From assembly GCA_046758745.1 (NCBI GenBank), contig JBHIAV010000012.1, positions 1 through 64,000 of the forward strand: a stretch of DNA of 64,000 nucleotides, in the 5' to 3' direction. Source of the DNA: Gemmatimonadota bacterium (lineage in GTDB: Bacteria; Gemmatimonadota; Gemmatimonadetes; Palauibacterales; Palauibacteraceae). A program made the translations under genes and the position numbers. This document shows, piece by piece, positions 22,334 to 40,087 of this stretch (position 1 is the stretch's first letter; every line of letters begins with the position of its first letter). The notes under the pieces were generated by a model. That model saw only the letters and a program-made list of their open reading frames with translations, had not been told where the DNA came from and searched no databases.

Positions 22334-24043
22334 TCAAGCCTCGCGTCCCTCCTCGCTGAGCATCGGCTCGATTCCGTAGCCGGTGAGCTGCCCCCGCTCG
22401 GCACGGTGCGCCATCCGGCGAACGAGCAGGACCTCCAGGCCGGCAGCCCCCACGATCACGAAGAGCACCAGGAGGTAGCTCGAGGCGGACGCCGGCTCCT
22501 TCAGGTACAGATAGTACCAGGAGGAGAGGGCCATCTTGAGGCCCGTCTCGCCGTTGGCCCCGTCCCATACGTGGAAAGCGACGGGAATGAACGCTCCCGG
22601 GCGTAGGTGGACATCACTCGACCCCTGCGGCGCGGTGAGCGGCCTTCGGATGACGAGCCTCCACCGGCCGTCCCGCCACATCGCATCCCCCGTAGCAAGC
22701 GGGCCCTCGGCGGACGCGGGCTGCGGCGGCTCCCTGACGCCACTCCCACGCAACTGCACGAGGGACAGGGGAGCGCTGCGGTCGTTTGCAAGATCCGCCC
22801 GCCAGCGGAGCAGCTCCACCGGCTGGTCCGGGCTCCCGTACACGAAGTGGGGCAGGATGGGGCCACCGTCGTAACGGACGGGAAACAGAATCTCGGCCGC
22901 ATCCGGGTACGTGCCGCGCACGCGGAGGCCTTCCGGATAGAGGATCGGGTAGGTATCGTCGGCGTTCCAGCCCGCCTCCACCGCCGCATCGGAATCCACG
23001 GACGCCGTGTCCGCGAACCTGTCATCCCAGGTCAGCAGAAGCGCGATCTCTTCCGCGTTGTACACCGCCCTGACGGTCAGGTCGGTCACCGCCGGAATCT
23101 GCCAGCGTGGCGCGAAGGTGGCCTGGCCGGTGAGGGGCAGCCACACCTCGGCGGCGGCCTCCCACGCAGGGTCGTCGGGACTCGATGGGAGGTCGCCCTG
23201 CGCGAGCCGCGCGGTGATCACGGCGCCAGCGGCGCGGTCGGTCGCCGGGCCCTCGGCCACAGAGGCGATGTAGTAGGCCAGCTGCCAGCGCTCCTCCTCG
23301 GTGATGGTTTCCGAGTACGATGGCATCGGCGTGCCGTCCAGCCCCGTGCTGAGTCGCATGTAGATGTCCCGCACCGCGAGGCCACCCTTGAACCTCCATC
23401 CGAGGTGGACATCGGCGGGCCACACGGGAAGGTCCCAGTCATCCGTGAGCTCGGCCGCCCGCTCTCCATCGCCTCGCCCCTCGGCGCCGTGGCACTCCCA
23501 GCAGTCGGCCTCATCGAACACGAGGCGTCCCCTGGCGATGAGCGAGTCCCTCCTCCCTCCGGGCGGCGAACCGACCTCCACGACGAATTGGTACGGGTCG
23601 AACGCTTCGTCCTCGAACAGGTCCGCCGCGAAGGTCTTGATGTACGAGATGACCTGCCACCGCTCCTCGGCCGTCAGCACGGACTGCCAGCTCGGCATCG
23701 CCGTCCCCGGAATGCCGAGGGAGATGGTTCGGAAAAGGTCCTCGTCGGTGGGGAGCTCGCCGCTCTCCGTGGTGCGTAGCTTGTAGCTCCCGGCCGTGAA
23801 GTCCCGCGGCCTCGGCCAGAGGTAGACCGCTACGGGGCCGTCGCCGTCGCCCTCCTCTCCGTGACAGAACCAGCACCGCTCCTCGTAGATCCTCCGTCCG
23901 GCCTCCACGGCGGCCGCGTCCGCGGCCGGTCGCGCCGGGACGCTCAGCTCGAGCCACTGGGCCGGGCCGGGAGACGGAGCGATCAGCCAAATCCCCGCAG
24001 CGAGCAGAGGGGAGAGAAGCGCCGAGTGCGGGCCGGTCCTCAC
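22334..24043 (-). CDS. Diheme cytochrome c fused to an ethylbenzene dehydrogenase gamma (EbdC/NxrC)-like domain, C-terminal TM anchor
   Basis: Signal peptide, CWFCH, CWECH, distal MP motifs, then [34 protein letters not shown] and a TM helix; GTGA overlap. Confidence 0.82.
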
Positions 24044-24858
24044 TCTCCTCCACCCTCCGGGATCCGCGGCTCGGTGCCGGCGATGCGGTATTCGGCCATG
24101 ATGATCCGCCACATGTCGTCCTCCTCCAGCTCGTCTCCCCAGGCGGGCATAGCCGAATGCCAAGGGGTGGCGATCCCGGGCAAGCCGATCCCTCCCTGCT
24201 GGATGCGCCAGAACGGATACGCCTCCACGAGGGTCGAGATGGTGCCCGGGTCTGAGAAGTCGACGGGCCGCAGGCGAAGCCCCCTGGCGAGCGGGCCCGA
24301 GCCGTCGGCCTTGGTTCCGTGGCAGGGCCGGCAGTTCTTCTGGTACAGAACGACGCCCTCGAGCTCGGCGGCGGTCCGTGCCTCGGCCGGCAGCCGGCGG
24401 AACGGGTTCTCGACGGCCGCGTACTCTCGGGGCAGGGTGGGGTGCTGGACCCGGAGGGCGGCCGGCGGCTGCATCTGGGGCATCACCCGCTGCCAGGCCA
24501 CCCAGCCCGCCAGCGCCGGAAGAAGCCCCAGCACGAGCAGCTGCGACCTGCGCCTTCCAGCCGGCCGGAGGACGAACAGCCGGACCACGGGACCCAGGAA
24601 GAGCCGCCACCGTCTCTCTTCGCTGCTCAGGTAGACCAGGGCCCCGAACGCCGCGCAGATGAGGTAGATGGCCCGCGCGAAGCCGGGGACGGGCGCAGGT
24701 CGCTCGCCGGCTCCCATCCACACGGTGAGCCACGGCACCAGGAAGCGCAGGGCGAGATACACGGCGAGCAGGACGATCGCGGTCCACAGGAAGACCCTCG
24801 GCTCGCGCGAGTCTTCATGCTCCCCGCCGGCGCCGACCTCTCCTCGTTTCCAGCCCAT
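24040..24858 (-). CDS. Membrane-bound monoheme cytochrome c
   Basis: Three hydrophobic segments, CRPCH, SAMPAW. Confidence 0.85.
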   Translation of the reverse strand: MGWKRGEVGAGGEHEDSREPRVFLWTAIVLLAVYLALRFLVPWLTVWMGAGERPAPVPGFARAIYLICAAFGALVYLSSEERRWRLFLGPVVRLFVLRPAGRRRSQLLVLGLLPALAGWVAWQRVMPQMQPPAALRVQHPTLPREYAAVENPFRRLPAEARTAAELEGVVLYQKNCRPCHGTKADGSGPLARGLRLRPVDFSDPGTISTLVEAYPFWRIQQGGIGLPGIATPWHSAMPAWGDELEEDDMWRIIMAEYRIAGTEPRIPEGGGE

Positions 24859-24870
24859 GCCGGTCCGGCC

Positions 24871-25851
24871 CTACTGCAGGGTGAACAGAAAGGCGAGGAC
24901 GTCGTGCAGCTCCGACACCGTGAGGACGTCGGCGAAGTTGTCGGGCATCAGCGAGAGCTCCTGGGTGCGACGCCGTGCGATGTCGGTGAGTGCAATGGCG
25001 AACTCCTCGCCCTCGGAGGTGGCCAGCCACAGGGAGTCGCCGCTCTCCCGGCGCACCAGCCCGTCGACCAGCCGGCCGTCGGTCAACTGTATCAGCTCCG
25101 ACTCGTACCCGCTGGCGATCTCCCTGCTGGGCTCGAGGATCGACTCGACGATGAACTGCCGCGTGCGCGTACCCGCGACCGACGTCAGCTCCGGGCCGAC
25201 GTCGCCCCCTTCCTCCCCCACCCGGTGACACTTCGCGCACGGAGCGGGGCCACCCACGTCGAAGAAGATCTCGCGGCCGCGCAGCGAGTCGCCCTCCAGG
25301 TAGGGCTCCCAGGGCTGCTCCAGGGTTCGGCGCTGCCGGGCCAGACGGATCTCCTCCGGGAGCTCGATGGCGCCCGGATCCGGAACCCCGCCCAGCGACT
25401 GCAGATAGAGGATGACCGAGGAGATCTCATCGGGGCCGAGGCTGATCGGAGGCTCGTACACCTTTGGCATCTCGTCCTTGTAGCCCTCCACCACGTGGGC
25501 GCTCGGACTCGCGATGGACTCGACGAGATACTCCGTGGCGGAAAGCTCTTCGCCCAGCTCGGCTCCCCGCTCGCGCGCGCGCTCGACGGCCCGCATGGCG
25601 ATCACCGGACCATCCGCGGACTCGCCCAGATTGGGACAGCGAACCGAACTGCCCCGCGTTCCGATCGAATGGCAGGTGTGGCACTTGCCGGGTCCCCAGA
25701 AGATCTGCTCCCCGTTCTCCACGCTCACGCCCTCGCCGATCGCGGCCACGCTCGCGCCTCCGGAGGCCCTGGTAACGACCTCGCCCGCCAGGACGAACAG
25801 GCCGATCAGGGCGACCGTGAAGACCGGCCCTTTGATCCAGAAGCTCGGCAT
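24871..25851 (-). CDS. Membrane-anchored diheme cytochrome c
   Basis: N-terminal TM, CHTCH..EMP, CAKCH..ESILEPS..SLMP. Confidence 0.87.
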   Translation of the reverse strand: MPSFWIKGPVFTVALIGLFVLAGEVVTRASGGASVAAIGEGVSVENGEQIFWGPGKCHTCHSIGTRGSSVRCPNLGESADGPVIAMRAVERARERGAELGEELSATEYLVESIASPSAHVVEGYKDEMPKVYEPPISLGPDEISSVILYLQSLGGVPDPGAIELPEEIRLARQRRTLEQPWEPYLEGDSLRGREIFFDVGGPAPCAKCHRVGEEGGDVGPELTSVAGTRTRQFIVESILEPSREIASGYESELIQLTDGRLVDGLVRRESGDSLWLATSEGEEFAIALTDIARRRTQELSLMPDNFADVLTVSELHDVLAFLFTLQ

Positions 25852-25885: not shown

Positions 25886-27916
25886 CTAGCCAGGGCTCGC
25901 GGCGCTGGAGATGGCTCCGGCGGGCTCGGCCGCCCGTGCGACCTCCCTCTCCTTCCCGGTGAGACTCGCGAGCCAGAACAGGAAGGCCACGGCGACGAGA
26001 AAGACGAGCGTGATGCTCCCGACCATGCGCGCCATCACCGCGTTGCTCGGGGTGAAGGCCCATTCCGAGGTATCCTGGAGCACTCCGTAGATGTGCCAGT
26101 TCTCGCGCAGGCCGGAGCGAATGAAGCCCATGAGCCCCATGGTCAGGACGATCGTGACGCACAGCGAGATGAGCGCGTACTGGGAGCGGGCGGTCACCTC
26201 TCCCCACCGGATGGCACCGATGCTTCGCGCGCCCCGGAAGAGCAACACATCGATCGCCGTGATGAGGATCAGGGCCGTCATGAGAATGAGCCACTGGGCC
26301 ACGGCGATCTGGCGGAGGAACGGGTTCGCCTCGGTCATCACGATGAAGCCGTATACGCCCAGCACACCCACCGACTCGATCGCCACGACCGTGAAGTAGA
26401 TGATCTGGGCCAGGTGTCCCCGGTCGCGCAGCGAGAGGCCCACGCAGCCCACCACCGCCAGCATCGTCGCGACGAGCAGGAACGCCGGCAGCCGAAAGTA
26501 GACCGCCTTCTCCGGCGCGAGGTCCAGCGTCTCGGGCGCGAGGGTGAAGAGCACCCTGGCGTACCACCCGAGGATGAGGAGGCACAGCGCACCGGCGGCC
26601 AGGAGAACGGCCTTGGCTCCTCGCCCCTGCCGCGAGAGCGGCCGGAGATCGGTCTTGTTCGCCCGGCGATACACCAGAAAGCTCGCGAAGGTGGTGAGGA
26701 TGATGAAGTTGATCACGGCGTTCTTCGCGGACATCAGGCCGAGGTAGCCGAGGAGCGGATGGACCTGTCCCCCGAGGGCCAGCTGCTCCTCCGCGCTCAA
26801 CGGGATGTTCCGCGGCGTGAGCCATATGGCGACGCAGACGACCAGGATGGCGTTGAAGTACTTGACGAACTTCTGATAGCGCTCCGCCCCCGGGATCCGA
26901 CCCATCCCGGACCACAGGTAGTAGTTTCCGACGATGAAGATGAGCCCGACGAGCATCGCCTGCATGATGAAGGTCCACGAGAAGGCGCCCCCCATCATGT
27001 TGTTCCCCATGATGGGGCTGGCGCTGTAGATCTCGCGGCCCAGGTAGTACCCGGCGAACGGCAGCGGGATGAGCGCAGAGAGCCCGACGAAGTTGCCTAC
27101 ATAGCCCATCCAATCGTAGTGCGCCCGCTCCTCGGACGTTCGTGCGGACAGGAGCCTCACGGCCGCGTACGCGCCCACCACGAATCCCCCGAAAGCCACG
27201 TTTCCCAGGATTCGGTGGATGTTCAGCGGCATCCACAGGGGGTTGGCGACCGCCTCCATTGTGGTCCCGACGAACGCTCCGCTCTCGTCGACTCCGACCG
27301 GGCTCATCATGTACGTTGCCCACGCATTCCCGAGGAAGACGAGGGCGGTACCCGACACATTGAGCAGCACGCCGAGCGACAGGTGGAGCCCCTTACGCCG
27401 GCGAAGCCGCTCCCACGAGTTGTAGTAGAGATAGAGGAGAGCCGTCTCCACGAAGAAGAACCCCGCGTAGACGTACATCGAGGGCGCGAAGATGCGGACG
27501 AAGTAGCTGGCGAATCGCGGGTAGAGTCCGAAGAGGGTAAACGCCAGCAGCCCTCCGAGGGCGGCGGTGGTGGCAAAAGCGGCGGCGAGAAGCTTGGTGA
27601 ATTCGTGGGCGAGCCGGTCGTAGCGGATGTCCCCCGTGCGCCACCCGATGAACTCCACGATTACAGCGAAGATCGGCACGCCCAGGACGAAGGCGGCGAA
27701 GAGGAGATGCAGCTGGGCGACGAACCACACCACCCTCCTCGGACTCAGCCCGAAGAAGTCGCGGACTTCATCGGCCGCCGCGAGGGGATCGGCCTGAGCC
27801 GCCCAGAGCGCTTCGGGCGCGAGCAGCCAGAAGCCGACGAAGGTCGCGACGGCGACGGCGGGGGGGATCCATCCGCCCCCTGCTCGCCGAACGGGACGCC
27901 AGCGACTGCCGCTCAC
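25886..27916 (-). CDS. Cytochrome bd subunit I (CydA)-like oxidoreductase, Nitrospira-type bd-like family
   Basis: Helix I QLHLLFAAFVLG, ATYMMSP, PLNIHRILGN, C-terminal MGFIRSGLRENWHIYG in place of EYGRQPW; many TM helices; no cydB nearby. Confidence 0.85.
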   Translation of the reverse strand: MSGSRWRPVRRAGGGWIPPAVAVATFVGFWLLAPEALWAAQADPLAAADEVRDFFGLSPRRVVWFVAQLHLLFAAFVLGVPIFAVIVEFIGWRTGDIRYDRLAHEFTKLLAAAFATTAALGGLLAFTLFGLYPRFASYFVRIFAPSMYVYAGFFFVETALLYLYYNSWERLRRRKGLHLSLGVLLNVSGTALVFLGNAWATYMMSPVGVDESGAFVGTTMEAVANPLWMPLNIHRILGNVAFGGFVVGAYAAVRLLSARTSEERAHYDWMGYVGNFVGLSALIPLPFAGYYLGREIYSASPIMGNNMMGGAFSWTFIMQAMLVGLIFIVGNYYLWSGMGRIPGAERYQKFVKYFNAILVVCVAIWLTPRNIPLSAEEQLALGGQVHPLLGYLGLMSAKNAVINFIILTTFASFLVYRRANKTDLRPLSRQGRGAKAVLLAAGALCLLILGWYARVLFTLAPETLDLAPEKAVYFRLPAFLLVATMLAVVGCVGLSLRDRGHLAQIIYFTVVAIESVGVLGVYGFIVMTEANPFLRQIAVAQWLILMTALILITAIDVLLFRGARSIGAIRWGEVTARSQYALISLCVTIVLTMGLMGFIRSGLRENWHIYGVLQDTSEWAFTPSNAVMARMVGSITLVFLVAVAFLFWLASLTGKEREVARAAEPAGAISSAASPG

Positions 27917-27925: not shown

Positions 27926-28747
27926 TCAGCCCTTGCTCATCTCAAGACTGACGCTGGTCGTCTCTCCCGAGGTTACTGTCACCGTGTGGCTGCTCGCTCC
28001 GAGCGCCTCGTGCCATGCCTCCAAGGTGTACGTGCCCGGCGGCACGTCCTCGATCACGAAGTTTCCATCGCGGTCGGTCAGCGCATGGTAGGGATGGTCG
28101 ATGACGACGATCCAGGCACCCATCCAGTCGTGAACATCACACCCCACCTTCACCTTCTCCGGAACGCGGAAGGTAACGTCGATCTTGCGCACACCGGGCG
28201 GCTGGGCCCGATTCAGCGGACGGTTCTCGAAGGTGAGCGTGTGAACGTTGTGCATGATCGGGTCGCTGTTCAGGACCTCGACCGTCGCTCCGGCGGGAGC
28301 GAACAGCACATGAGGCCGGAAACCGCACTCTCTCTGGTCGAGAACGGGAGGCGATGTGGGCATCTCCAGAGCCGCGCCGCTGGCAATGTCCACCAGCGAG
28401 ACAACGGCGTCCGCCAGCCCTTTGTTCCCGCCAACCCGCAGCGTCTCCACCTGACGAAGGCCTCCGCAGGTCTCCGCGTCCTCCGTCACCGTGATCGTCT
28501 GCGGGGCCGGCACCGCCCCGACGAAGCGGACGGTTCCGCGGATGGTTCCACCGTTCGTCACCTCGACCACGGTGTAGCTAGATGCGCTCTCGACGCCGGG
28601 CTCGGGCGTGGACGCTTCCTCGAGCGGCGCCGTCTCTGCGGCGGTCTCCCGGGCGTCGCCGGCTGCGCCCCCGCACGCTCCCACGGCGAGGGCAAGGGCG
28701 GCGAGGAGACCCGCACCTTCTATACCTTCTATCCAATTCCGTCTCAT
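27926..28747 (-). CDS. Lipoprotein with cupredoxin-like and carboxypeptidase-regulatory-like domains
   Basis: Lipobox VGAC; NSDPIMHNVH..GCDVHDWM; VPPGTYTLEAWHE. Confidence 0.8.
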   Translation of the reverse strand: MRRNWIEGIEGAGLLAALALAVGACGGAAGDARETAAETAPLEEASTPEPGVESASSYTVVEVTNGGTIRGTVRFVGAVPAPQTITVTEDAETCGGLRQVETLRVGGNKGLADAVVSLVDIASGAALEMPTSPPVLDQRECGFRPHVLFAPAGATVEVLNSDPIMHNVHTLTFENRPLNRAQPPGVRKIDVTFRVPEKVKVGCDVHDWMGAWIVVIDHPYHALTDRDGNFVIEDVPPGTYTLEAWHEALGASSHTVTVTSGETTSVSLEMSKG

Positions 28748-29481
28748 CTTCCCCCCTCGGCGGTGGATGTGGCCGCCGCCGGCGCAAGAGTGAACTCGAC
28801 CGTCGTCGCGGCGTTCGGACGCACCGTCACCTCCAGCTCCTGCTCCCCGAGGACCTCGTGCCACGCCTTCAGAGTGTAGGTGCCGGGTGGGACGCCTTCG
28901 ATCTCGAAGGCTCCGGATTCGGCGCTCACGGCAAAGTAGGGATGGTCGAAGATCAGGATCTTGGCGTGCATCCACGAGTGCGCGTCGCACGAGACGTCGA
29001 TGACCCCCGCCCGACGGAGCGGCCGGTCGGCGGTGACCTTGGATCCCTGGCTCGACAGCGCCCAGTTTCCGACCGTTCGGGTTCGCCCGTTTCGCTCGAG
29101 GTTCAGGTGCGTATTGTGGAGGACCTCGTCCCGATTGTCGATGATGAGCTTGCCGCCGACCGCAGCGGCCAGAACCGGCGGATCGAAGCTGCACCCGGAA
29201 TTCGACAGGCGGAACTCCTGCGGCGGGACCTCTCCCTCCAGCCCTTCGACGAAGACGACGGCGTAGGCGACCCGTCCGTCCTTTATCACCACATCCCGCG
29301 CCTGAATCGTCTCGCCACAGAACTCCCGGTTCTTCGTGACCTTGAGCAGGCGTGGCGCCGGGGCGGTCCCTTCGATCCGGACCGTGCCCTGGATCGTGCC
29401 GGTCTGGGCCACTCCCCCCGGCGGCATGACCATCAGGGCCGCCAGCGCGGCCGAGACGCCGAATCCGTATCTCAACAGCAC
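28744..29481 (-). CDS. Periplasmic paralog with cupredoxin-like and carboxypeptidase-regulatory-like domains
   Basis: GTG with GGAGGAG RBS; NRDEVLHNTH..SCDAHSWM; VPPGTYTLKAWHE. Confidence 0.8.
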   Translation of the reverse strand: MLLRYGFGVSAALAALMVMPPGGVAQTGTIQGTVRIEGTAPAPRLLKVTKNREFCGETIQARDVVIKDGRVAYAVVFVEGLEGEVPPQEFRLSNSGCSFDPPVLAAAVGGKLIIDNRDEVLHNTHLNLERNGRTRTVGNWALSSQGSKVTADRPLRRAGVIDVSCDAHSWMHAKILIFDHPYFAVSAESGAFEIEGVPPGTYTLKAWHEVLGEQELEVTVRPNAATTVEFTLAPAAATSTAEGGR

Positions 29482-30654: not shown

Positions 30655-31098
30655 TTAGTTGTCCTGGGCGCCCTCGGCGATCCATTCCCGGATGGCGGAG
30701 ATCTGATCCTCCGAGAGCGGCGAGAGTCCGAGCGGCATTCGGCCGCCCACGATGCCCTGACGCCCCTCGATCTTCCACACGATGTAGCTGGAGTCCGGCA
30801 CTCCGGGATCGACGCGCAGCAGTTCCGGAATCTCGATGCTGGCTACCCCCACGAGGTTCCCCCGCGAGACTCCCGCATCGAGCGCCAGCCCCAGCGGAGC
30901 CGCGGCGCCCGTGTGGCAGCGCGTGCAGATCGCGCTGAAGACGTTGTCCTGGATCGAGCTCAACGTCGGAGCCAGCTGTAGGCCGGGCGGTCCCAGCGGG
31001 TTGCCGAACTCGTCCAAGCCCGTCCCGTCGCCCGCGCAGCCCGAAGAAAAGGCGATGGCCAGGACGGCCAGTGCGGCAACGTGCCGCTGACCGATCAT
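30655..31098 (-). CDS. Monoheme cytochrome c lipoprotein
   Basis: Lipobox SSGC, CTRCH, GRMPLG, IREWIAEGA; ATGA overlap. Confidence 0.82.
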   Translation of the reverse strand: MIGQRHVAALAVLAIAFSSGCAGDGTGLDEFGNPLGPPGLQLAPTLSSIQDNVFSAICTRCHTGAAAPLGLALDAGVSRGNLVGVASIEIPELLRVDPGVPDSSYIVWKIEGRQGIVGGRMPLGLSPLSEDQISAIREWIAEGAQDN

Positions 31099-32941: not shown

Positions 32942-33922
32942 TCAGGGACTCACGGTGATCGTCCCCCTCATGCCCAGGTCGGCATGGCCCGGGATCGTGC
33001 ACAGGACCTCGAAGCTTCCCGCTTCGGTAGGCACCATGAACAGCTCCGAATCGCCTCCGATCTGGAGCTCGATCGCCTTCAGGTAAGGCGCCTTGATCTC
33101 GGCCTGTGAGTCCTCGGCCTTCCGGAACACCACGGTCTTGTAGAACTCGGCCGCCGTGTAGTAGTGCTTCGAGGCGTGCCCGCCCGGATTCGTGATGTGG
33201 ATCTTGTACGCGACGTCCTTGGTCAGCTGGAGATCCGGCGGTACGAAACCGAGCTGGTCGAAGGAGGCCGACTCGAACATGCTGATCGGCGCCTCCACCG
33301 CGCTCGTCCACACATCGTGCGAGCCCGAGCGTCGTGGATCGGTGGTGAGAGACTGGTCGAAGTCCGGGGCGACCTCCAGGTCCAACTGATAGCCCTCCCC
33401 GCCGGTGATCGTGGCGGTGGCCGTCATCCCGAGCTCCTTGTGGCCCGGAATGATGCAGATGATGTCGTACGTGCCGGCCAGCACCGGGACGACGAAGATC
33501 TCCAGGGAGCCGCCGATCTGGAGCTCGACCTCATTGAAGAACGGAGCTTTGTACTCGGCCTCGTCGGTCTCGATCTTCCGCGTGGCGACCGCCTGATAGA
33601 AGCTCGCTCCCTCCGGCGAGAAGTAGTGCTTGCTGCTGTTCGAAGCCGGGTTGGTGATGCGGATGATATACGGCTTGCCCGCCTCGAACGTCAGCTCGTT
33701 CGGCGAAAAAGCCAGGGCCGTGGGGGTCTCCACCATGCTGACCTCTACGGTTTGGGCCTCGTCCCAGTTCACGAAGTCGACCCAATCCGAGGCCAGCGTC
33801 GGGGTCTGGGGTGGAGGCGGCGGGGGCCCGGTAACCTCCCCACCGTCGCAGCCCCACACCGTCAGGGCCAGCAGCGCGGTGAGGCCCAGCCCCAGGCTGC
33901 TCTTCTTGGCTCGCGTCTCCAT
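32942..33922 (-). CDS. Tandem di-cupredoxin (blue copper) lipoprotein
   Basis: Lipobox VWGC; two repeats each with KHY.. and C-x-IPGH-xxx-GM (CIIPGHKELGM, CTIPGHADLGM). Confidence 0.88.
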   Translation of the reverse strand: METRAKKSSLGLGLTALLALTVWGCDGGEVTGPPPPPPQTPTLASDWVDFVNWDEAQTVEVSMVETPTALAFSPNELTFEAGKPYIIRITNPASNSSKHYFSPEGASFYQAVATRKIETDEAEYKAPFFNEVELQIGGSLEIFVVPVLAGTYDIICIIPGHKELGMTATATITGGEGYQLDLEVAPDFDQSLTTDPRRSGSHDVWTSAVEAPISMFESASFDQLGFVPPDLQLTKDVAYKIHITNPGGHASKHYYTAAEFYKTVVFRKAEDSQAEIKAPYLKAIELQIGGDSELFMVPTEAGSFEVLCTIPGHADLGMRGTITVSP

Positions 33923-34042
33923 CTGGGTACCCTCCTCCCGGCTCTGTGTCGCATTTCGGCGTGAGCCGGAATGTCTGGATGTTTGCGACTAGCTCTGTGC
34001 GTTCCGGCGGGGGGCTCATCGCCCGCGCCGCGATGTCGGAGG

Positions 34043-34058
34043 TGCACGATGCAGGCCC
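34043..34058 (-). promoter_or_regulatory. Candidate sigma54 -24/-12 promoter
   Basis: Minus strand gGGCCTGCATCGTGCA = GG-N10-GC; imperfect match to TGGCACG-N4-TTGC. Confidence 0.45.
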
Positions 34059-34153
34059 GGGACGGGCTTTCGGGCGGCTGGCAGCTATATAGCGATATCG
34101 CAGCGAGTTAGCGGCTACCAGGACGTCGTCGGAGGGCTGCTGGCGGCCTGGAG

Positions 34154-34194
34154 TGGGACATGGAAGGTCGCAGCGTGTGACGGCGCGTGTCCCA
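34154..34194. promoter_or_regulatory. Tandem palindromic enhancer sites TGNGAC-N7-GTCNCA
   Basis: TGGGAC-atggaag-GTCGCA (34154-34172) and TGTGAC-ggcgcgt-GTCCCA (34176-34194), 22 bp apart. Confidence 0.6.
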
Positions 34195-34316
34195 GGTCGG
34201 CGCGGTCGGCCGGGCGCGGTGAGCGGATTGCGGACGGAACCTTCCGGACCACCGCCCATTCTGGAATGCGAAAGGCGAGATCCAGACTGGAAGGCGAGAG
34301 GAGATCCAGACGCGGT

Positions 34317-35759
34317 CTAGAAGGCGAAATCCAGGCGGAACCAGAGGTTCTGCGGCCTCGGATCGTTCAGCTGGGTGCTGGCCTCGTGCTCCGTGAAGAG
34401 CTCCGCCTCGATGACGCCGCGGATGTTCTGACGCACCAGGAAGATGATGCCCGGTAGGATCCGCCTCTGATCGGCTCCTCCCTGCGTGAAGCCGGCGTCG
34501 AGGAGGGCAGCCGGCACGTCCGCATCGAAGGTATCAAACTTGAGGGATCCGATGAGCCACGGGAAGATCAGGTATTCCGCCTTTCCGAAGAAGCTCGAGT
34601 ACGGAACCTCGCCGGACGCGCTCGCTCCCCACGGATTGTCGTTCTCGCCCCATACGTACCCGACGCCGATATCCGCCGGCCCGTAGAGGACCCGGGCGCT
34701 GATGCCGAAGGACCGGTGGTCGTCCTGGCGGTCGCCGTCCACGGGCTGAGCGCCGAAGTAGCCGAAGTGCTCTATGGTGAGCGAGCGGTCCAGGAGCTGA
34801 CCGCCCCCGCCCTGGACGGGCCCGCCGCCCGGCCCGTACCGCCCATCCAGGCCCAGGCCGCCGATCTTGTAGCGGACCTTGTAGAACACATCCTTGTGGT
34901 TGTTGTTGTCGGTAGTGAGGTCGCCCACGCCCTGGGCCAGGCCGAAGCCGTAGTACAGCCGCCCCCCGATGATTCCGTTCAGCTCGAGGGCCGGCTGTGT
35001 CTGGCGCAACCGGAACTCGTTCGTCGAACGGAGGGAGTCGCCCGTGTCCGGGCGCCTCAACTCGAGATCCGAAATCCGATACGTCTGCCACAGGAAGTTC
35101 TGGCGTCCGGCGCGATCGATCTGCCGGTCCGCGAACGTGAACAGGTAGATGTTCTGCATGCCGACCCACAGGTTCAGCCACCGCGAGGGAAGCCGTGGCA
35201 GGAGGTCCTGGAACTCGATCTTGGCCTGCAGGACCTCGAGGTCCCGTTCCCGGCTCCACTCGGTCTCCAGGAACACGGAGATGTCGTCACCGAGGGTGGC
35301 GGCCGCGAGCAGGTAGATCTCCTGCGGAAAGCGGAAGCTCCAGGTGAACGCCGAACCGGCCTCGCGCGTCAGCTGGACATCGTTCTGTACACGGAGCGCG
35401 AGCGGCACGACACCCGGGATTTCGCCCGGCCAGATCGCACGGGGCCACAGATCCTTCCATGGCTCGCCGCCGAGCGGGACAGGGCGATCCTTTCGGAAGA
35501 GCTTGTCGTTCTCGGGGAAGCGATACCCGTTGAGTCGGAATGCCTCGCCGAACACGTTCAGCTTGGGCGCCGCCGTGTGGCAGGTCGAGCAGCTGGTCCG
35601 GTATTTCCTGGCGAAGGCGGGGATCTCTCCCACCGCCAGCTCGGAGGAGAGGGGAATCGCGCCGCTCGATACCAGCGCACTGAACAGGGCGAGGGCGGCC
35701 ACGATCAGAGACGCCGGGGCGAATCTCGGCTTCGGGCTACATCCGGATCGCTGCGTCAT
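34317..35759 (-). CDS. Cyc2-like fused monoheme cytochrome-porin
   Basis: Signal peptide, IPAFARKYRTSCSTCHTAAPKLNVFGEAFRLNGY, beta-barrel-like body, terminal FRLDFAF. Confidence 0.8.
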   Translation of the reverse strand: MTQRSGCSPKPRFAPASLIVAALALFSALVSSGAIPLSSELAVGEIPAFARKYRTSCSTCHTAAPKLNVFGEAFRLNGYRFPENDKLFRKDRPVPLGGEPWKDLWPRAIWPGEIPGVVPLALRVQNDVQLTREAGSAFTWSFRFPQEIYLLAAATLGDDISVFLETEWSRERDLEVLQAKIEFQDLLPRLPSRWLNLWVGMQNIYLFTFADRQIDRAGRQNFLWQTYRISDLELRRPDTGDSLRSTNEFRLRQTQPALELNGIIGGRLYYGFGLAQGVGDLTTDNNNHKDVFYKVRYKIGGLGLDGRYGPGGGPVQGGGGQLLDRSLTIEHFGYFGAQPVDGDRQDDHRSFGISARVLYGPADIGVGYVWGENDNPWGASASGEVPYSSFFGKAEYLIFPWLIGSLKFDTFDADVPAALLDAGFTQGGADQRRILPGIIFLVRQNIRGVIEAELFTEHEASTQLNDPRPQNLWFRLDFAF

Positions 35760-35790: not shown

Positions 35791-36396
35791 CTACCGCCCG
35801 CTGCGGGGAAGACGCAGCGTCAGGTGCAGTGACTCGCCCTCGTGAACGACGATGTCTCTCCGGAACGGTCGGGTGGCCTGGTGCCACACGTTGACGGCGT
35901 ATCTTCCGGCCGGCACGTTGTCGATCCGGAATCGCCCCTCTCCGTCCGCTACAGCGCGGTAGGGTGTGTCTACGACCACGACCCAGGCCACCATCTCGGG
36001 GTGCACGTGGCAGAGTATGACATGCGCTCCGACCTCCCTGAACAGGTGCAACCTGGACTCGTGTCGCGGATATGTCCCGAGGTTGAACCCGACTCCCGGA
36101 TCCTTCGGAGAGAACACGTTGTGCAGTATGGGGTCGCTGTTTCGGAACTCGACGGCCGTTCCGGGAAGGACGGCCAACACCGGGGGCACGAAGCGGAGGT
36201 TGGCCTGATCGATGACCGGTGTGTCCCGGGCCGACGGGTTGGCAGCCTCCGCCTCGGGTAGGAGATACACGACGGCACCGACGCTTCGCACATCCGACGC
36301 GTCTACGGTTCCGCTTACCGTGGCGAACTGAGAGGCCGCTGGCGCGGTACACCCGAGCGAGGCTACGACCCAGGCCAGCGAGAGACCCGGCTTCAT
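35791..36396 (-). CDS. Exported protein with cupredoxin-like and carboxypeptidase-regulatory-like domains
   Basis: FRNSDPILHNVFS..LCHVHPEM; VPAGRY; ATGA overlap with the regulator stop. Confidence 0.8.
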   Translation of the reverse strand: MKPGLSLAWVVASLGCTAPAASQFATVSGTVDASDVRSVGAVVYLLPEAEAANPSARDTPVIDQANLRFVPPVLAVLPGTAVEFRNSDPILHNVFSPKDPGVGFNLGTYPRHESRLHLFREVGAHVILCHVHPEMVAWVVVVDTPYRAVADGEGRFRIDNVPAGRYAVNVWHQATRPFRRDIVVHEGESLHLTLRLPRSGR

Positions 36397-37793
36397 CTCC
36401 AGCCGCTTCCCGCGGACCCGTTGTCCAGCTCGGCGATCCACCGGTGGAGCGTCCGCCGGCTGACTCGCGCCGCACGGGCGGCCTTCGAGACGTTGCCGCC
36501 GCTCGCTTGCAGCAGTCGCCTCACATACCTGGCCCGAAAGGCCTGGAGAGCCCGGGCACGGGCTCCTTCATAGGGCAGCAGCTGTTCCGAGTCGGAGGGC
36601 TCGTTCGACAGGCTGGTCCACGGCCGAAGTGGCTCCGGCAAGTCCGAAAGGGTGACGCGCTGGTCCTCATCGAGGATCACCAGCCGCTCGGCAAGGTTCC
36701 TCAACTCTCGCACGTTGCCCGGCCAATGGTACCGCTGGAGGGCATCCCACACGTCGGGTGAGACGCGGGGGGGCTCTCTGTCCTGTGCGGCGGAGAATTG
36801 CGCGAGGAAGCTCTGCGCGAGCAGCACGATGTCGTCGCCACGGTCCCGCAGCGGCGGGACGTGCAACGGTACCACGTTGAGGCGATAGTACAGGTCCTCG
36901 CGAAACCTGCCCTCCGCGACCGCAGCTTCGAGGTCCATGTTGGTGGCGGATACGATCCGAATGTCTACATCGATCAGTTGTGATCCTCCGAGCCGGCGAA
37001 CCTGTCGTTCCTCGAGGGTCCGCAGGAACTTCGACTGGAGCCCCAGGCTCATCTCGGGGAACTCATCGAGGAAAACGGTTCCGCCGTTCGCCTCCTCGAG
37101 CAGGCCCTTCTTGCGCGCGTCGGCGCCGGTGAAGGCCCCGCGCTCGTGGCCAAACAGCTCGCTTTCCAGGAGGCCCTCCGGTAGGGCCGCACAATCCACC
37201 GGCAGGAACGGGCCGTCCTTTCGGGGGCTCCGAGCATGGATGAAGCGCGCGATGAGCTCTTTGCCTGTCCCGCTCTCGCCAAAGATCAGCACGTTGGCAT
37301 CGGTGGGCGCCACCTTTCTCGCCTGCTCCATGAGCTTCACCATCGGCGGACTCGAGCCGACGATCTCCTCCCGACCCGCACCGCGCGCCACCTGCTGGCG
37401 TAGCGCCTGGTTCTCGAGAGCCAATGCCCGGTGTCGAGCCGCTCGTTCGATCGCGATGAGGAGTGCGTCCGCCCGGAACGGCTTGGTCAGGTAATCGAAC
37501 GCTCCCTCCCTGATCGCGTGCACCGCCGAGGGGACGGTTGCGTACGCCGTCATGATCACGACCGGGAGCGCCGGGTCATCGGCCTGTGCGACGGTGAGCA
37601 GAGTCATGCCGTCCACATCCGGCATGCGAAGGTCCAGAAGCAAGACGTCGGGGCGCACTTCTTCCAGGATCTCCCGGAATCGGGATGGATCCGAGAGCGT
37701 CCAGCAGGCGTAGCCCTCCCGCGAGAGCAGCCGCTCGCAGTTCTCGAGCATGTCCGGCTCGTCGTCGACGATGAGCACGCGACCCCTCTCCAC
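36393..37793 (-). CDS. Sigma54-dependent NtrC/AtoC-family response regulator
   Basis: REC domain (VDDE, DLRMP), GESGTGKE, GAFTGA, WPGNVREL, Fis-type HTH; GTG with AGGAGG RBS. Confidence 0.95.
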   Translation of the reverse strand: MERGRVLIVDDEPDMLENCERLLSREGYACWTLSDPSRFREILEEVRPDVLLLDLRMPDVDGMTLLTVAQADDPALPVVIMTAYATVPSAVHAIREGAFDYLTKPFRADALLIAIERAARHRALALENQALRQQVARGAGREEIVGSSPPMVKLMEQARKVAPTDANVLIFGESGTGKELIARFIHARSPRKDGPFLPVDCAALPEGLLESELFGHERGAFTGADARKKGLLEEANGGTVFLDEFPEMSLGLQSKFLRTLEERQVRRLGGSQLIDVDIRIVSATNMDLEAAVAEGRFREDLYYRLNVVPLHVPPLRDRGDDIVLLAQSFLAQFSAAQDREPPRVSPDVWDALQRYHWPGNVRELRNLAERLVILDEDQRVTLSDLPEPLRPWTSLSNEPSDSEQLLPYEGARARALQAFRARYVRRLLQASGGNVSKAARAARVSRRTLHRWIAELDNGSAGSGWR

Positions 37794-37801
37794 GCCCCCT
37801 C

Positions 37802-40087
37802 CTAACCACGCAATGGCAGGGAGACCACAAAACGGCTCCCGTGCCCTTCTCTGCTTTCGACCCAGATCCTCCCCCTGTGTCTTTCGACGATGCTGCGGCA
37901 CACCGAGAGCCCCAGTCCGGTGCCGTGTCCGCTCCTCTTGGTGGTGAAGAAAGGCTCGAAGATGCGGTTGCGGAGCTCGGCCGGTACGCCGTGACCGGTG
38001 TCCCGCACTTCGAGCTCGACCGTATCACCCTCGCGGGAACGTCGGGCTTCCACCGTCACCGTGCCGCCGGGTGGGGTGGCGTCCAACGCGTTCAGGAGCA
38101 GGTTCATGCACACCGTCTCGATTGCCTTCAGGTTGCCCATCAGCAGGGGAAGCTGATCATCGAGGCGCGTCTCGAGCTCGACCTCCCGCGCCATGTAGGT
38201 CCGCTTCAGAAGACTCGTGACTCTCTCTACGACCTCGCCCAGCGCCACCCGCACCGGCTCTTCATGGTCCTCGTGCGCGAAGGAGAGCAGATCCCGTATC
38301 ACGCCGTCCAGTCGGTCGGTGTGTTCGCGCAGGACGGCCAGATCGTCCTCCAGAAAGCTCCCTTCGCCTCGTTCTCGGATCTCGCGTTCCATGCACTCGA
38401 TGCGATTCCCGATCACGGCGAGCGGATTGCCCAGCTCGTGGGCGACCCCGGCCGTCATCACGCTCACGGCGGCCAGCCGTTCGGAGTGACGCATCTGCTC
38501 CTCGAGCTTGGCTTGCAGCCGCGTGTCGCGAATGATGAGCGAGAACCCCAGGGGGCAACCTTCGTCATCGCGAATCACCGTCTGGGTGAGGCTCACCGGA
38601 AACGGCTGACCGTCTCTGGCGACTCGCTTCGTGTGGAAGTTGACGACGGCGCCCTGCTCCGCCGCCTCGCGCCGGATGAACGCCGCCTCGCTCTTCCAGT
38701 CCTCGCCGCCGGGAAGCAGGAGCGCATCGACGTTCACCCCGACAGCCTCGGAGGCCGCATACCCGAAGAGGTCCTCCGCGCCCCTGTTCCAGACTCGAAT
38801 GCGGCCCTCGAGGTCGAGCCCCACGATCGCGTCGGCGGAATGCTCGAGGATTCCCGACAGCTCGGCATGCGCTTCGCGCAGCGCCAGCGTGCGCTCCGCC
38901 ACGAGCTCTTCCAGCTTCTGACGCTGTTCCGCGAGGGCGCGTGCCATCGCCGAAAAGTCCGCCGCCAGGTCCTCGAGCTCGTCGTTGGTGGCGATCTGCA
39001 GGGGTGGCTGCGAGAGGCCCCGGGCCAACCGTCGGGCCCCCTGGCTCAGTTGGTAGATGGGTCGTGTGAGCTGATGGGCGGCCAGCACCGCCAGTCCGAG
39101 AACCAGCACGAGAACGACCAACGCACCGACGGCCACCCAGTGCAAGAAACGCCGTGCCGGAGCTTCGAGCGCCGAGAGCGGGACCACTCGATACAGTATG
39201 AGCGGGCGCATACCGAGCTCACTCAGCTGCAGAGGCAGGAAGCTGACGATGCCCTGGTCAGAGGCCAGCACGGTGCCCGAGGAGCCGGAGAGGATCGTCC
39301 GGGTCACCTCCGCTGGAAAGTCGCTTCCGAGGTCTACTTCGGAGCGCGATGCCAGCAGGCTGGCCCAATCTCGCTTTCGCTCGGAGTGGTAGAGAAAGAG
39401 ACCGTCGGAGTCGACGAGGCCCGTCACGCCCTTGAGATGCGGTGAACCCAGCTCCAGCCGGGCGAACAGGACCGAAGCGTAGGCCTCGCCGATCACCGCC
39501 CCTCGCAGCGTCCCATCGGCGTCCATCACGGGCAGCAGAATCGCCACGGCCGGTATCGTGGCTACGCCCTCCCCGGCCGACCCGTCGCCCCGCAGCTCGA
39601 CGGGCAGCATGAGCCGCTCGCCCTGCCGCAAGCCCCTCGCGCGCAGGGCGTAGTACATCCCCCCCGCCTCATAGCCCTCCGGACCCGGCGGCTCGTACCC
39701 GCCGGCGCGCCCGACGAACAGCAGCCTGCCGTTCGCGTCGACGACTTTGACCCGAAACAGGGCTGGGGTGTAGGTGAGGAAGGAAGATACGGTGCTGGCC
39801 GCCGCCTCCCAGTCGACCTCTTCGCTCGGTGCGAGCAGCGGCCCGAGGACGTGCAGCGCAAGATACGTCACGGAGCGCTCGACTTCCTCCAGCGACCGCT
39901 CCGTCTGCTGCTCCGCCATCTCCAGGTCATGTTCAAGGGTGGCCTTCGCCTGTGCACGGATGTTCCGAAGCGTGACCCGGGTGCCGAGAACCCCCGTGAC
40001 CGCCAGCGGCACGAGCGAGAGCGAGGCGAAGGCGATCGCCAGCTTCGCCCGGATCGACAAGCGTGGGAAGAGCTTGTTGAGATTCAT
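37802..40087 (-). CDS. Membrane sensor histidine kinase (periplasmic domain-HAMP-PAS-HisKA-HATPase)
   Basis: Two TM helices, HAMP (DELEDLAADF), PAS (WNRGAEDLFGY), AHELGNPL, FEPFFTTK, GTGLGL. Confidence 0.94.
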   Translation of the reverse strand: MNLNKLFPRLSIRAKLAIAFASLSLVPLAVTGVLGTRVTLRNIRAQAKATLEHDLEMAEQQTERSLEEVERSVTYLALHVLGPLLAPSEEVDWEAAASTVSSFLTYTPALFRVKVVDANGRLLFVGRAGGYEPPGPEGYEAGGMYYALRARGLRQGERLMLPVELRGDGSAGEGVATIPAVAILLPVMDADGTLRGAVIGEAYASVLFARLELGSPHLKGVTGLVDSDGLFLYHSERKRDWASLLASRSEVDLGSDFPAEVTRTILSGSSGTVLASDQGIVSFLPLQLSELGMRPLILYRVVPLSALEAPARRFLHWVAVGALVVLVLVLGLAVLAAHQLTRPIYQLSQGARRLARGLSQPPLQIATNDELEDLAADFSAMARALAEQRQKLEELVAERTLALREAHAELSGILEHSADAIVGLDLEGRIRVWNRGAEDLFGYAASEAVGVNVDALLLPGGEDWKSEAAFIRREAAEQGAVVNFHTKRVARDGQPFPVSLTQTVIRDDEGCPLGFSLIIRDTRLQAKLEEQMRHSERLAAVSVMTAGVAHELGNPLAVIGNRIECMEREIRERGEGSFLEDDLAVLREHTDRLDGVIRDLLSFAHEDHEEPVRVALGEVVERVTSLLKRTYMAREVELETRLDDQLPLLMGNLKAIETVCMNLLLNALDATPPGGTVTVEARRSREGDTVELEVRDTGHGVPAELRNRIFEPFFTTKRSGHGTGLGLSVCRSIVERHRGRIWVESREGHGSRFVVSLPLRG

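Follow-up and report, generated by a model that had tools for sequence, protein, structure and literature searches.

Contig JBHIAV010000012.1 of the Gemmatimonadota assembly GCA_046758745.1 was analysed over positions 1 to 64,000 (the window, 64 kb in all), and between 22334 and 40087 on its minus strand it carries an island of 15 genes in which two unlike haem-porins, four cupredoxin-like proteins, five further cytochromes c and a bd-like membrane protein are encoded together with a sensor kinase and a sigma54 activator. We propose that this island specifies a self-regulated, high-potential branch of electron transport in which electrons would flow inward from an Fe(II)-type donor and end in the reduction of O2, and we give this proposal about an even chance of being correct. 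In its favour stand the physical linkage of the three modules of the island in other Gemmatimonadota genomes and the invariance of the type-1 copper ligands.

Genes were called from third-position G+C together with translation, with starts set by position, in a window of 65-73% G+C. The island is delimited by the start of the kinase gene at 40087 and the stop of cytEB at 22334, and its genes, with the one long gap between them, are given here in the order of transcription:

HK, 37802..40087, minus strand: sensor histidine kinase of 761 residues with dCache-like, HAMP, PAS, HisKA and HATPase domains (Pfam)
RR, 36393..37793, minus strand: NtrC-type regulator of 466 residues with REC, sigma54-interaction AAA+ and helix-turn-helix domains
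cupA, 35791..36396, minus strand: 201 residues, lipoprotein-like signal (..SLGC), amicyanin-like site HN..CHVHPEM, CarboxypepD_reg domain
porA, 34317..35759, minus strand: Cyc2-type fused cytochrome-porin of 480 residues, IPAFARKY-RTS-CSTCH-TAA-PKL followed by a predicted 16-strand barrel
intergenic gap, 33923..34316, minus strand: 394 nt, probable start of an 11-gene unit
cup2, 32942..33922, minus strand: lipoprotein of 326 residues with two cupredoxin domains, CIIPGHKELGM and CTIPGHADLGM (Cys-x4-His-x4-Met in each)
lipo, 32072..32893, minus strand: predicted lipoprotein of 273 residues (..IMASC), of no known family
cytC2a, 31095..32075, minus strand: secreted dihaem cytochrome c of 326 residues, CAPCH and CWDCH, Pfam Cytochrome_CBB3 and Cytochrom_C
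cytS, 30655..31098, minus strand: lipoprotein monohaem cytochrome c of 147 residues, lipobox at Cys21, CTRCH, invariant Met121
porB, 29543..30634, minus strand: haem-porin of 363 residues, N-terminal segment of about 55 residues with CSQCHVNRTGGGGR, then a predicted 16-strand barrel; not of Cyc2 type
cupB, 28744..29481, minus strand: secreted amicyanin-like cupredoxin of 245 residues with CarboxypepD_reg, HN..CDAHSWM
cupC, 27926..28747, minus strand: lipoprotein cupredoxin of 273 residues with CarboxypepD_reg, HN..CDVHDWM; first gene of the bd-like core
CydA-like gene, 25886..27916, minus strand: predicted membrane haem protein of 676 residues, OR-N type ("bd-like")
cytC2b, 24871..25851, minus strand: N-terminally anchored dihaem cytochrome c of 326 residues, CHTCH and CAKCH, transmembrane segment 8-26
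cytC1, 24040..24858, minus strand: membrane-anchored monohaem cytochrome c of 272 residues, CRPCH, two to three N-terminal hydrophobic segments (Pfam)
cytEB, 22334..24043, minus strand: 569 residues with two haem c domains, an EB_dh domain (haem b type) and a C-terminal transmembrane anchor

Four-base NTGA overlaps are present at five junctions (RR/cupA, lipo/cytC2a, cytC2a/cytS, cupB/cupC and cytC1/cytEB), the remaining intergenic gaps measure 8-61 nt with the sole exception of the 394 nt from porA to cup2, and GGAGG-like ribosome sites lie ahead of nearly all 15 starts. Ten CxxCH motifs are spread over seven proteins (two each in cytC2a, cytC2b and cytEB, one each in porA, cytS, porB and cytC1), and five Cys..His..Met copper sites over four (two in cup2, one each in cupA, cupB and cupC). 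A first-pass annotation of the window had described 15 co-oriented, tightly packed genes between uvrA and lysA with NTGA overlaps, and its limits and both of its motif counts proved exact; the two haem-porin fusions that it named are borne out by a CxxCH and a 16-strand barrel model in both porA and porB, and its CydA-like enzyme, kinase and sigma54 activator by domain matches in Pfam and NCBIfam. Its treatment of the whole as one 15-gene system needs to be qualified, however, since the island divides into three separable modules, which lie together in the window and in the genomes that we label G001, G002 and G005 but are also found apart. Module 1 is HK-RR-cupA-porA; module 2 comprises the two-domain cupredoxin cup2, cytC2a, cytS, porB and cupB; and module 3, the OR-N "bd-like" core, comprises cupC, the CydA-like gene, cytC2b, cytC1 and cytEB. 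Across the 11 genes spanned by modules 2 and 3, no gap exceeds 61 nt and four junctions overlap by 4 bases, a spacing that suggests a single transcript.

The path that we envisage begins with a dissolved surface reductant, for which Fe(II) is the best guess, that would be oxidised by the single haem of porA; porB with cytS may oxidise such a reductant likewise. Fe(II) is favoured since no activity other than its oxidation has been demonstrated for Cyc2 proteins and since the DNA comes from vents: the island is present in four runs of a single study that are labelled hydrothermal vent metagenome, of which two may be the source, and no RNA run is listed for it. Mn(II) or other dissolved reductants may serve as the donor instead. 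Judged from signal peptides, lipoboxes and ligand motifs, the four cupredoxin proteins with their five type-1 copper sites, cytC2a and cytS would form a periplasmic, partly lipid-anchored relay. These carriers would reduce a complex of cytC2b, cytC1, cytEB and the CydA-like protein, the composition of which follows homology, and the complex would in turn reduce O2. HK and RR, co-transcribed with cupA-porA, would probably respond to a presumed signal by switching on the 11-gene unit from a putative promoter past the 394-nt gap. We infer throughout that haem and copper are bound, that porA and porB lie in the outer membrane and that HK-RR controls the block.

The sequence criteria for Cyc2 that are stated in the consulted text of Keffer et al. 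2021 (PMC8406198) are a single CxxCH, an upstream PxFAR[Q/K][T/Y] motif that is called "unique to Cyc2", a PxL placed four residues beyond the haem motif, a minimum of 365 residues and a 16-strand barrel, and porA agrees with each of those that can be read from sequence. Its sole CxxCH is the CSTCH at residue 57, which follows a hydrophobic segment at 17-35 and has PAFARKY upstream and PKL downstream, and across an alignment of 30 homologues I46, P47, F49, R51, C57, C60, H61, P65, K66 and L67 are invariant. An AlphaFold2 model (mean pLDDT 76, pTM 0.77) contains 16 long strands over residues 120-479, with pLDDT mostly at 80-94 in the barrel block and a poorly defined haem segment; its Foldseek matches are 16-strand porins that include OprP (2o4v) and OprO (4rjw), the templates named for Cyc2 by Keffer et al. 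2021 (PMC8406198). No Cyc2 model of Pfam or NCBIfam matched porA, a search of its profile against solved structures returned no sequence relatives, and the 120 homologues listed are all unnamed or "hypothetical", the few with a source name being Gemmatimonadota or Gemmatimonadetes. We place porA in the Cyc2 type on these features and predict from them that it binds haem and oxidises Fe(II). In every locus with porA that was examined, cupA precedes it.

A second Cyc2-like gene is present in the same genome on another contig (C36, L059:1-10032) and encodes 466 residues with PSFARRY-NLS-CSTCH-TVF-PSL. A cupC paralogue and a dihaem cytochrome gene precede it, and it is convergent with a block for a dihaem cytochrome, a Rieske protein, a cytochrome b-c fusion, a plastocyanin-like protein, a lipoprotein, a haem-less porin and a further dihaem cytochrome. 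The position of a Cyc2-like gene beside Rieske and cytochrome b genes recalls the split between downhill and uphill electron flow in Acidithiobacillus, and this locus may be the "uphill" counterpart of the island.

At the other end of the proposed path, the CydA-like protein matches Pfam PF01654 (Cyt_bd_oxida_I, 6.3e-24) over profile positions 8-242 of 418 only, which is the N-terminal half. When it is aligned to Geobacillus 5doq_A (E 1.7e-10), H70 falls on the haem ligand His21 (E. coli His19), E157 falls on Glu108 (E. coli Glu107), Y150 takes the place of Glu101, one of two proton-channel Glu residues, and H234 lies one position off the b558 ligand in this pairwise alignment. Among 42 homologues from the compared loci, H70, Y150, E157, H178, H234, H266, H386, M395 and H608 are at least 95% conserved. 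A crude hydropathy scan gives at least 13 hydrophobic segments, an approximate figure, and 14 transmembrane segments are stated for OR-N1/N2 in the preprint of Murali, Gennis and Hemp (2021), the available text of which describes the OR-N family as without quinol-binding features. The Pfam and PDB matches stop at profile position 242 (chain residues 208-261), no homology to a Q-loop was detected, and none of the 15 island proteins matched a CydB family in Pfam or NCBIfam. The accompanying proteins include cytC2b with a TIGR02603 haem-binding domain (130 bits against a cut-off of 68) and cytEB with a Pfam EB_dh match (1.4e-19; TIGR03477 below cut-off), CWFCH and CWECH, and a transmembrane segment at 523-541; cytochrome c domains of Pfam or NCBIfam are found in all five soluble or anchored cytochromes of the island. 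By these features the gene belongs to a cytochrome-c-linked OR-N bd-like module, for which O2 reduction is predicted.

Published accounts of related modules bear on this prediction. According to Yu et al., Manganitrophus TO_1 pairs a bd-like protein and a cytochrome b in the periplasm, and Cyc2 and TO_1 are both proposed for Mn(II) lithotrophy, in the consulted text not as one gene cluster (PMC9040806). A NIDE0901-like OR-N2 subunit is treated as part of the terminal oxidase in Nitrospirales, with its oxygen affinity given as unknown (PMC12342949). It is conceivable that the island has the wiring proposed here and ends in a complex that is not an oxidase, one that links the high-potential pool to the quinone pool either uphill, driven by the proton motive force, or as a substitute for complex III that feeds carriers for aa3 oxidases. 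Strictly anaerobic anammox bacteria keep the core module, a shorter cydA paralogue stands directly upstream of aa3 oxidase genes both in this genome and in G132, one proton-channel Glu is replaced as noted, and Yu et al. consider quinone reduction by the related complex TO_2 (PMC9040806), all of which would suit such a function. We nevertheless hold it to be distinctly unlikely, since OR-N proteins lack quinol-binding features according to the same preprint, the match of the CydA-like protein to Pfam ends at 242/418, before the Q-loop region, and for three named cultivated Nitrospira strains no other O2 reductase is reported in the consulted text of PMC12342949.

Comparative evidence for a bd-like complex fed by the porins comes from a scan for the CydA-like protein with one genome per species, which gave 43 loci against which all 15 proteins were run by tblastn. 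Bins titled Gemmatimonadota or its orders contributed 25 of these loci, and the others are titled Scalindua, Nitrospirae, Methylomirabilales, Binatia, Planctomycetota, Pseudomonadota, "Deltaproteobacteria" and others. The order cupredoxin-cydA-cytC2b-cytC1-cytEB is present in 29/43 loci, among them loci of Gemmatimonadota, Scalindua, Nitrospirae and Binatia; of the 14 loci without it, most are truncated at a contig end and two contain a double module in rearranged order. The set cup2-cytC2a-cytS-porB-cupB lies directly upstream of the core in five loci only (L002, L003, L007, L010 and L012). porA was missed in this first set because its 10-kb flank was too short, and whole-genome searches and longer stretches were used for it. 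In G001 and G002, HK-RR-cupA-porA is immediately upstream of cup2 and all three modules are contiguous through cytEB; G005 has all three with the regulatory unit inverted and divergent; in G091 and G110 modules 1 and 2 are contiguous as far as the contig end; G003 has modules 2 and 3 together and HK-RR-cupA-porA on another contig; and G004 has modules 2 and 3 together with HK-RR directly before cup2 and cupA-porA alone elsewhere. The gene order thus recurs in other genomes far beyond chance, and the co-conservation that the first-pass annotation had proposed to check is found in other Gemmatimonadota.

In other phyla the place of the porins beside the core is taken by other genes, and no Cyc2 motif was found near the bd-like modules of other phyla among the 43 loci. 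In L039 (Pseudomonadota), L031 ("Deltaproteobacteria") and L009 (Methylomirabilales), genes for a Rieske protein and a molybdopterin subunit with a Rieske_3 domain stand directly upstream of the core cupredoxin genes and are preceded by two dihaem peroxidase-like genes; in L040 (Pseudomonadota) the corresponding Rieske and molybdopterin genes are found downstream of cytEB, about 2.4 kb away and in the same orientation, and no peroxidase-like gene was seen at that locus. Against the NCBIfam model for the arsenite oxidase large subunit AioA, L039 and L009 score 435.5 and 439.7 bits (cut-off 359), and against that for the small subunit AioB, L039 scores 124.6 bits (cut-off 95.7). The arsenite oxidase gene stretches, all on the strand of the core, are L039:2020-7541, L040:16688-19966, L031:2587-8089 and L009:395-6236. 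Two Scalindua loci have genes for a Rieske protein, a cytochrome b and a multihaem protein of about 965 residues beside the core. These loci support the view that the core is an acceptor with an interchangeable high-potential donor module and that the haem-porin set is its partner in a subset of Gemmatimonadota, and no other comparative observation argues as strongly that the porins pass electrons to the bd-like complex as the recurrence of the core with different high-potential partners. The first-pass annotation had named constant pairing with a known periplasmic dehydrogenase as the contrary case; such an enzyme is sometimes present and not always, and the lack of a molybdoenzyme or other donor enzyme that it had stated for the locus extends to the whole 64-kb window, in which no gene for a molybdoenzyme or other dehydrogenase lies.

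Frequencies were taken from a sample of 151 genomes of the phylum, in which the carriers are kin rather than independent, so that no statistic is claimed. porB is present in 17/151 genomes, porA-type proteins at E <=1e-180 in 5/151 with weaker Cyc2-like matches in four more, and the full-length cydA form in 4/151; any form of cydA, including a shorter paralogue with about 54% identity over the first 450 residues, occurs in 41/151. Among these related genomes porB accompanies 4/4 carriers of full-length cydA and 4/5 carriers of porA. One further neighbour of the core was seen at L021:7551-8966, where a gene for a 471-residue lactonase-like beta-propeller with an N-terminal Planctomycete-type cytochrome c domain is divergent from it; in L022 and L028 tblastn matches to the propeller occur at the corresponding position, and L008 has an upstream lactonase-like propeller in which no cytochrome domain was detected.

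The second haem-porin, porB, has the same architecture as porA, a CxxCH and a 16-strand barrel, but its sequence is of another kind. CSQCH is at residue 42 and the barrel covers residues 83-362 of an AlphaFold2 model (mean pLDDT 70, pTM 0.70) whose Foldseek matches are Omp32 (2fgq, TM 0.65/0.71), OmpT and OprP. It has no PxFAR and no PxL, at 363 residues it falls below the length of 365, and an hhalign comparison of its profile with that of porA gave a probability of 29%, confined to part of the barrel; the Cyc2 name used at first pass is supported for porA by its sequence and does not extend to porB. A profile search with HMMER of 1.84 billion cluster representatives gave 1625 proteins at E <=1e-3, of which 882 reach <=1e-10 and 306 reach <=1e-30. 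Among the best 150 matches, 118 have at least 330 residues, and of these 117 carry a CxxCH within the first 150 residues and none (0/118) a PxFAR; the haem region of the family reads CSxCH-[V/T]-N-x-TGGGxR. Searched against solved structures, the porB profile found no sequence relatives.

In all 14 other loci with a porB homologue (nine in one set and five more), cytS is immediately upstream. When porB 28-363, cytS 21-147 and two haems were submitted to complex prediction, the best score was 0.23 against a mark of 0.32, a result that carries no weight for or against binding. Distant cytS homologues have the haem motif C-A-x-x-G-C-H (CX4CH) in place of CxxCH (L065:9377-9829, L068:10823-11269, L069:9261-9701, L062:18207-18632, L066:8114-8578 and L064:9436-9909), and all of them keep the lipobox Cys, then GDGTGLD, and the invariant Met-Pro. 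An aldehyde dehydrogenase gene follows cytS-porB in four Gemmatimonadota genomes (L064:11176-12822, L065:13903-15729, L066:9724-11349 and L069:11030-12658), and hybrid PAS kinases lie near the pair in L065, L066 and L068. In G132 and G044 the pair is 8-11 kb from the shorter bd-like paralogue.

The copper proteins of the predicted relay fall into two groups. cupA, cupB and cupC are paralogues, with 33-38% identity to cupC and a C-terminal CarboxypepD_reg domain, and their N-terminal domain has no Pfam match; the cupC family profile matches amicyanin 1sf3_A (E 5.4e-7), with HN and CxxHxxM aligned to the amicyanin ligands, as well as other amicyanins, a type-1 copper domain protein, pseudoazurins and plastocyanins. 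H166, C203, H206 and M209 (cupC numbering) are invariant in eight homologues, one Scalindua locus included. cup2 matches Pfam Copper-bind (9e-9) and SoxE (4e-6), with weak hits, below cut-off, to the NCBIfam models for rusticyanin (TIGR03095) and sulfocyanin. All four proteins thus carry the ligands of type-1 copper cupredoxins, and copper binding is predicted for them on that ground. Lipobox-like signals are present in cupA, cupC, cup2, cytS and lipo, and cytC2a is a paralogue of the N-terminal half of cytEB, with 45-47% identity to cytEB residues 13-248.

Several variations on this part of the island were seen. cup2 is duplicated in L010, L012 and L054, and in G002 (L055:12745-14598) two copies are fused into one 617-residue, four-domain protein with four copper sites. 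In L003 (4419-8472), and likewise in L007, an insert of 5 kb separates cupB from a second copy of that gene and encodes a 499-residue protein of no family and an 849-residue protein with one C-terminal cytochrome c domain. The lipoprotein gene lipo matched nothing in Pfam or NCBIfam, and by tblastn it has no match in any other locus compared; the idea that it is a decayed second cup2 was rejected, as the two show no similarity.

The nature of these carriers also bears on the direction of flow. Porin-cytochrome systems of the Mtr/Mto kind can run either way, and iron oxidation and iron reduction are not separable from such annotations in Gemmatimonadota according to the consulted text of PMC11316326, so that electrons might instead pass outward through the complex, the copper and haem carriers and the haem-porins to Fe(III) or Mn(IV) oxides. 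We regard this direction as very improbable. Single-haem Cyc2-type porins are known only from oxidation, with a small pore argued in the text consulted to admit dissolved Fe2+ only (PMC8406198); type-1 copper carriers of the amicyanin and rusticyanin types are high-potential; no quinol-binding region was detected in the CydA-like protein; and the island encodes no multihaem wires, with at most two CxxCH in any protein.

The regulatory genes resemble an NtrC-type two-component system in domain set. All domains of HK score above the Pfam cut-offs apart from dCache_1 (42.5 bits against 45), and a hydropathy scan places hydrophobic segments at 12-34 and 318-336 as two transmembrane segments around the dCache-like, periplasmic domain. 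RR matches Sigma54_activat (3.2e-70) and Response_reg (1.1e-28) in Pfam and lies below every cut-off of the NCBIfam equivalog models. HK heads the conserved HK-RR-cupA-porA unit in L054, L055, L056, L058, L071 and L072, and rpoN is present in the same genome. Only weak -24/-12-like sites accompany this domain set: a tentative element in the 394-nt gap, GGGCCTGCATCGTGCA at 34058..34043, agrees with 7/11 consensus positions and keeps GG/GC, and similar weak sites upstream of cup2 in L072, L010 and L012 (7-9/11) are partly common to the loci. A scan of the window for TGGCAC-N5-TTGCW with at most two mismatches gave 5 matches against 14 expected, and scans of the island for sigma70 promoters and terminators were at chance (1 against 1.2 expected and 7 against 7.0). 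In L040, L041 and L017 a kinase (25-27% identity to HK) and an NtrC-like regulator (40-41% to RR) stand just before the core, and in G002 a small receiver-domain-like open reading frame (L055:12151-12648) lies between porA and cup2.

The island is set among housekeeping genes. It is flanked by uvrA (frame 19414-22455) and a lysA-type pyridoxal phosphate-dependent decarboxylase gene (40278-41600), and the rest of the 64 kb holds rnhB, trmD, rimM, rpsP, ffh, purA, a tRNA synthetase gene, pspA and TamB, as well as genes for an Omp85 protein and lgt, tsaD, rsmB, thiG, fmt, def, yajC and ruvB. G+C is 0.65-0.69 over 26-40 kb and 0.69-0.73 around it, which puts the island 3-5 points under its flanks. 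Searches with six proteins encoded in the flanks, uvrA and lysA among them, gave 0 matches in 73 loci beside related clusters, which indicates that the island sits at a different place in every genome examined and, together with the lower G+C, that the block moved or was acquired independently of its surroundings.

The assembly as a whole amounts to 3.08 Mb in 130 contigs and is 87% complete. On contig C5 (L060:6387-18998) it carries a shorter bd-like module (cydA paralogue, cytochromes, EB_dh protein and cupredoxin) directly upstream of COX2-COX1-COX3 and behind a gene for a protein with Usp and PCP_red domains; Usp/PCP_red proteins are also found beside bd-like modules in L017, L018, L040, L041 and L066, in the last of these together with a radical SAM/SPASM/PCP_red protein and an Mrp-like ATPase. 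Contig C20 (L061:3144-15481) encodes a RuBisCO large subunit, with no small subunit seen nearby, phosphoribulokinase, transketolase and transaldolase, and their neighbours encode Fae, a dehydrogenase of the tetrahydromethanopterin pathway, a pyrroloquinoline quinone dehydrogenase of the methanol/ethanol family, a solute-binding protein and a cytochrome c. This gene set suggests a Gemmatimonadota methylotroph with a Calvin cycle.

A number of these and further observations weigh against a respiratory path from Fe(II) to O2. The genome has four haem-copper oxidases, their COX1 genes all on contigs other than that of the island, and the bd-like complex is not needed for O2 reduction; RuBisCO and phosphoribulokinase, considered as support for iron lithoautotrophy, were set aside, since they sit with methylotrophy genes and not with the island and carbon fixation fits methylotrophic autotrophy at least as well as iron lithotrophy. 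Anammox bacteria, which are anaerobes, carry the same core, a conserved Tyr replaces a proton-channel Glu of the CydA-like protein, and the Murali preprint and PMC12342949, in the text consulted, record no purified OR-N member and no measured OR-N activity. Cyc2 homologues are widespread in organisms not known as iron oxidisers, according to the consulted text of PMC9769843. No sigma54 site scoring at least 8/11 was found in the intergenic regions of the window. porB is nearby in only 5/20 close loci (at least 65% identity and at least 6 kb of upstream DNA), and in six core loci without porB the upstream genes are unrelated (peptidases, outer-membrane proteins and the like); in G132, G147, G139 and G117 cytS-porB adjoins the aldehyde dehydrogenase gene, away from other cytochrome genes. 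The claim at first pass that the porins are the obvious electron input keeps the support of the donor-slot pattern, but the count of 5/20 makes them an accessory input rather than an obligate partner.

The modules might also be neighbours without a shared pathway, the bd-like module being a general respiratory complex, linked to cupredoxin or cytochrome c, on the ordinary periplasmic pool and the haem-porins serving iron sensing, uptake or detoxification. Each module does occur alone, the core without porins in most loci, HK-RR-cupA-porA in L058 and L071 (G149 is among such genomes) and cytS-porB in L064, L065, L066 and L069; elsewhere in this genome, paralogues with cupredoxin and CarboxypepD_reg domains adjoin aa3-type oxidases and further cytochrome loci; and the flanks of the island are conserved nowhere. 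What makes this explanation unlikely to us is that in at least four genomes the modules follow one another without a break and at close spacing, staying side by side even with the regulatory unit inverted, that the spacing and overlaps of the 11 genes of modules 2 and 3 point to a single transcript, and that arsenite oxidase fills the donor slot in other phyla. We retain the inward path to O2 as our preferred reading, at the even chance stated at the outset. Its most detailed version, a full chain from the outer membrane to an OR-N oxidase in which porB and cytS would constitute a second kind of minimal trans-outer-membrane haem conduit beside Cyc2 (a 16-strand barrel, a segment of about 55 residues with CSxCH-x-N-x-TGGGxR and an obligatory lipoprotein monohaem partner), is a joint claim that we put forward tentatively and consider somewhat unlikely as a whole.

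The open-access literature searched contained no account of the cluster or of porB-type proteins, and such clusters may appear in the supplementary figures and tables of PMC9769843 and PMC11316326 or in the Murali supplement. Not found in print in these searches were an operon that joins both haem-porin types, five copper sites and an OR-N core and has its own sigma54 regulation, the porB-cytS family, and an interchangeable donor slot that includes arsenite oxidase. The earlier statement that the combination was undescribed in Gemmatimonadota stands for the cluster but not for its parts, as the hypothesis of a path from Cyc2 to a bd-like complex (PMC9040806) and matches to Cyc2 and "sulfocyanin" in Gemmatimonadota metagenome-assembled genomes (PMC9769843, PMC11316326) already appear in the consulted text of those papers. 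The island names concrete donor-acceptor pairs for the bd-like OR-N complexes, the assumed terminal oxidase of Nitrospira and Manganitrophus, and the fixed core with its interchangeable neighbour (the Cyc2/haem-porin set, arsenite oxidase, or Rieske/cytochrome b) suggests that the core is a general acceptor of high-potential periplasmic electrons. A Cyc2 gene that is co-transcribed with its own kinase and activator and joined to a membrane complex makes a much stronger respiratory case than a lone match to a hidden Markov model, the sensor domain of HK offers a route to the physiological signal, and porB-cytS adds an undescribed haem-porin family with 306 cluster representatives at E <=1e-30. 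If the proposed path is true, vent Gemmatimonadota would respire Fe(II) or another dissolved metal by way of an oxidase type first noticed in nitrite oxidisers, and the operon would be a direct handle on bd-like oxidase function. The island is of interest chiefly because it opens the function of bd-like complexes, and that of non-canonical carriers of Cyc2, to testing.

Each part of the island has a known relative, namely Cyc2, blue-copper carriers, the OR-N module and NtrC-type regulation. Like the Cyc2 proteins of A. ferrooxidans and Mariprofundus (Cyc2PV-1), porA and its C36 counterpart have a signal sequence, a single CxxCH, PxFAR[Q/K/R][T/Y], a PxL four residues past the haem motif, more than 365 residues and an OprP/OprO-like 16-strand barrel. 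They differ in that the end of the motif is three residues from CxxCH in porA, where the consulted text of Keffer et al. states five with an unclear counting convention, in that the first Ala of AxPxFAR is Glu in porA, and in that porA shares its operon with genes for a kinase, a sigma54 activator and a cupredoxin. With the OR-N modules of Nitrospira (NIDE0901), Manganitrophus (TO_1) and anammox bacteria the core shares the first CydA helices and the His19 ligand, the lack of CydB and of a detectable Q-loop region, at least 13 hydrophobic segments, and a setting among genes for cytochromes c, an EB_dh haem b protein and a cupredoxin; unlike them it is joined to two haem-porin modules and a two-component system, and it has no genes for nitrite oxidoreductase (NXR), arsenite oxidase or complex III beside it.

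Two-protein porin-cytochrome conduits are known as MtoAB, PioAB and MtrAB, with a 26-strand barrel and a ten-haem partner. The pair cytS-porB resembles them as an invariant combination of a periplasm-facing cytochrome and an outer-membrane barrel, but the barrel of porB has 16 strands and its own haem motif, cytS has one haem, and binding between the two proteins is a prediction. The closest precedent for the island as a whole is the rus operon of Acidithiobacillus ferrooxidans, which comprises cyc2, cyc1, cox genes and the gene for rusticyanin and ends in an aa3 oxidase; the copper spacing of rusticyanin, Cys-x4-His-x4-Met, is that of cup2. Both combine in one block a Cyc2, a dihaem cytochrome c, blue-copper carriers and a terminal membrane enzyme. 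The island differs in that its terminal enzyme is of the bd-like OR-N type rather than aa3, with no COX1, COX2 or COX3 in the island by Pfam, in that it has two unlike haem-porins, five mostly amicyanin-like copper sites and its own kinase and sigma54 activator, and in that its host is a neutrophile-type vent Gemmatimonadota rather than an acidophile.

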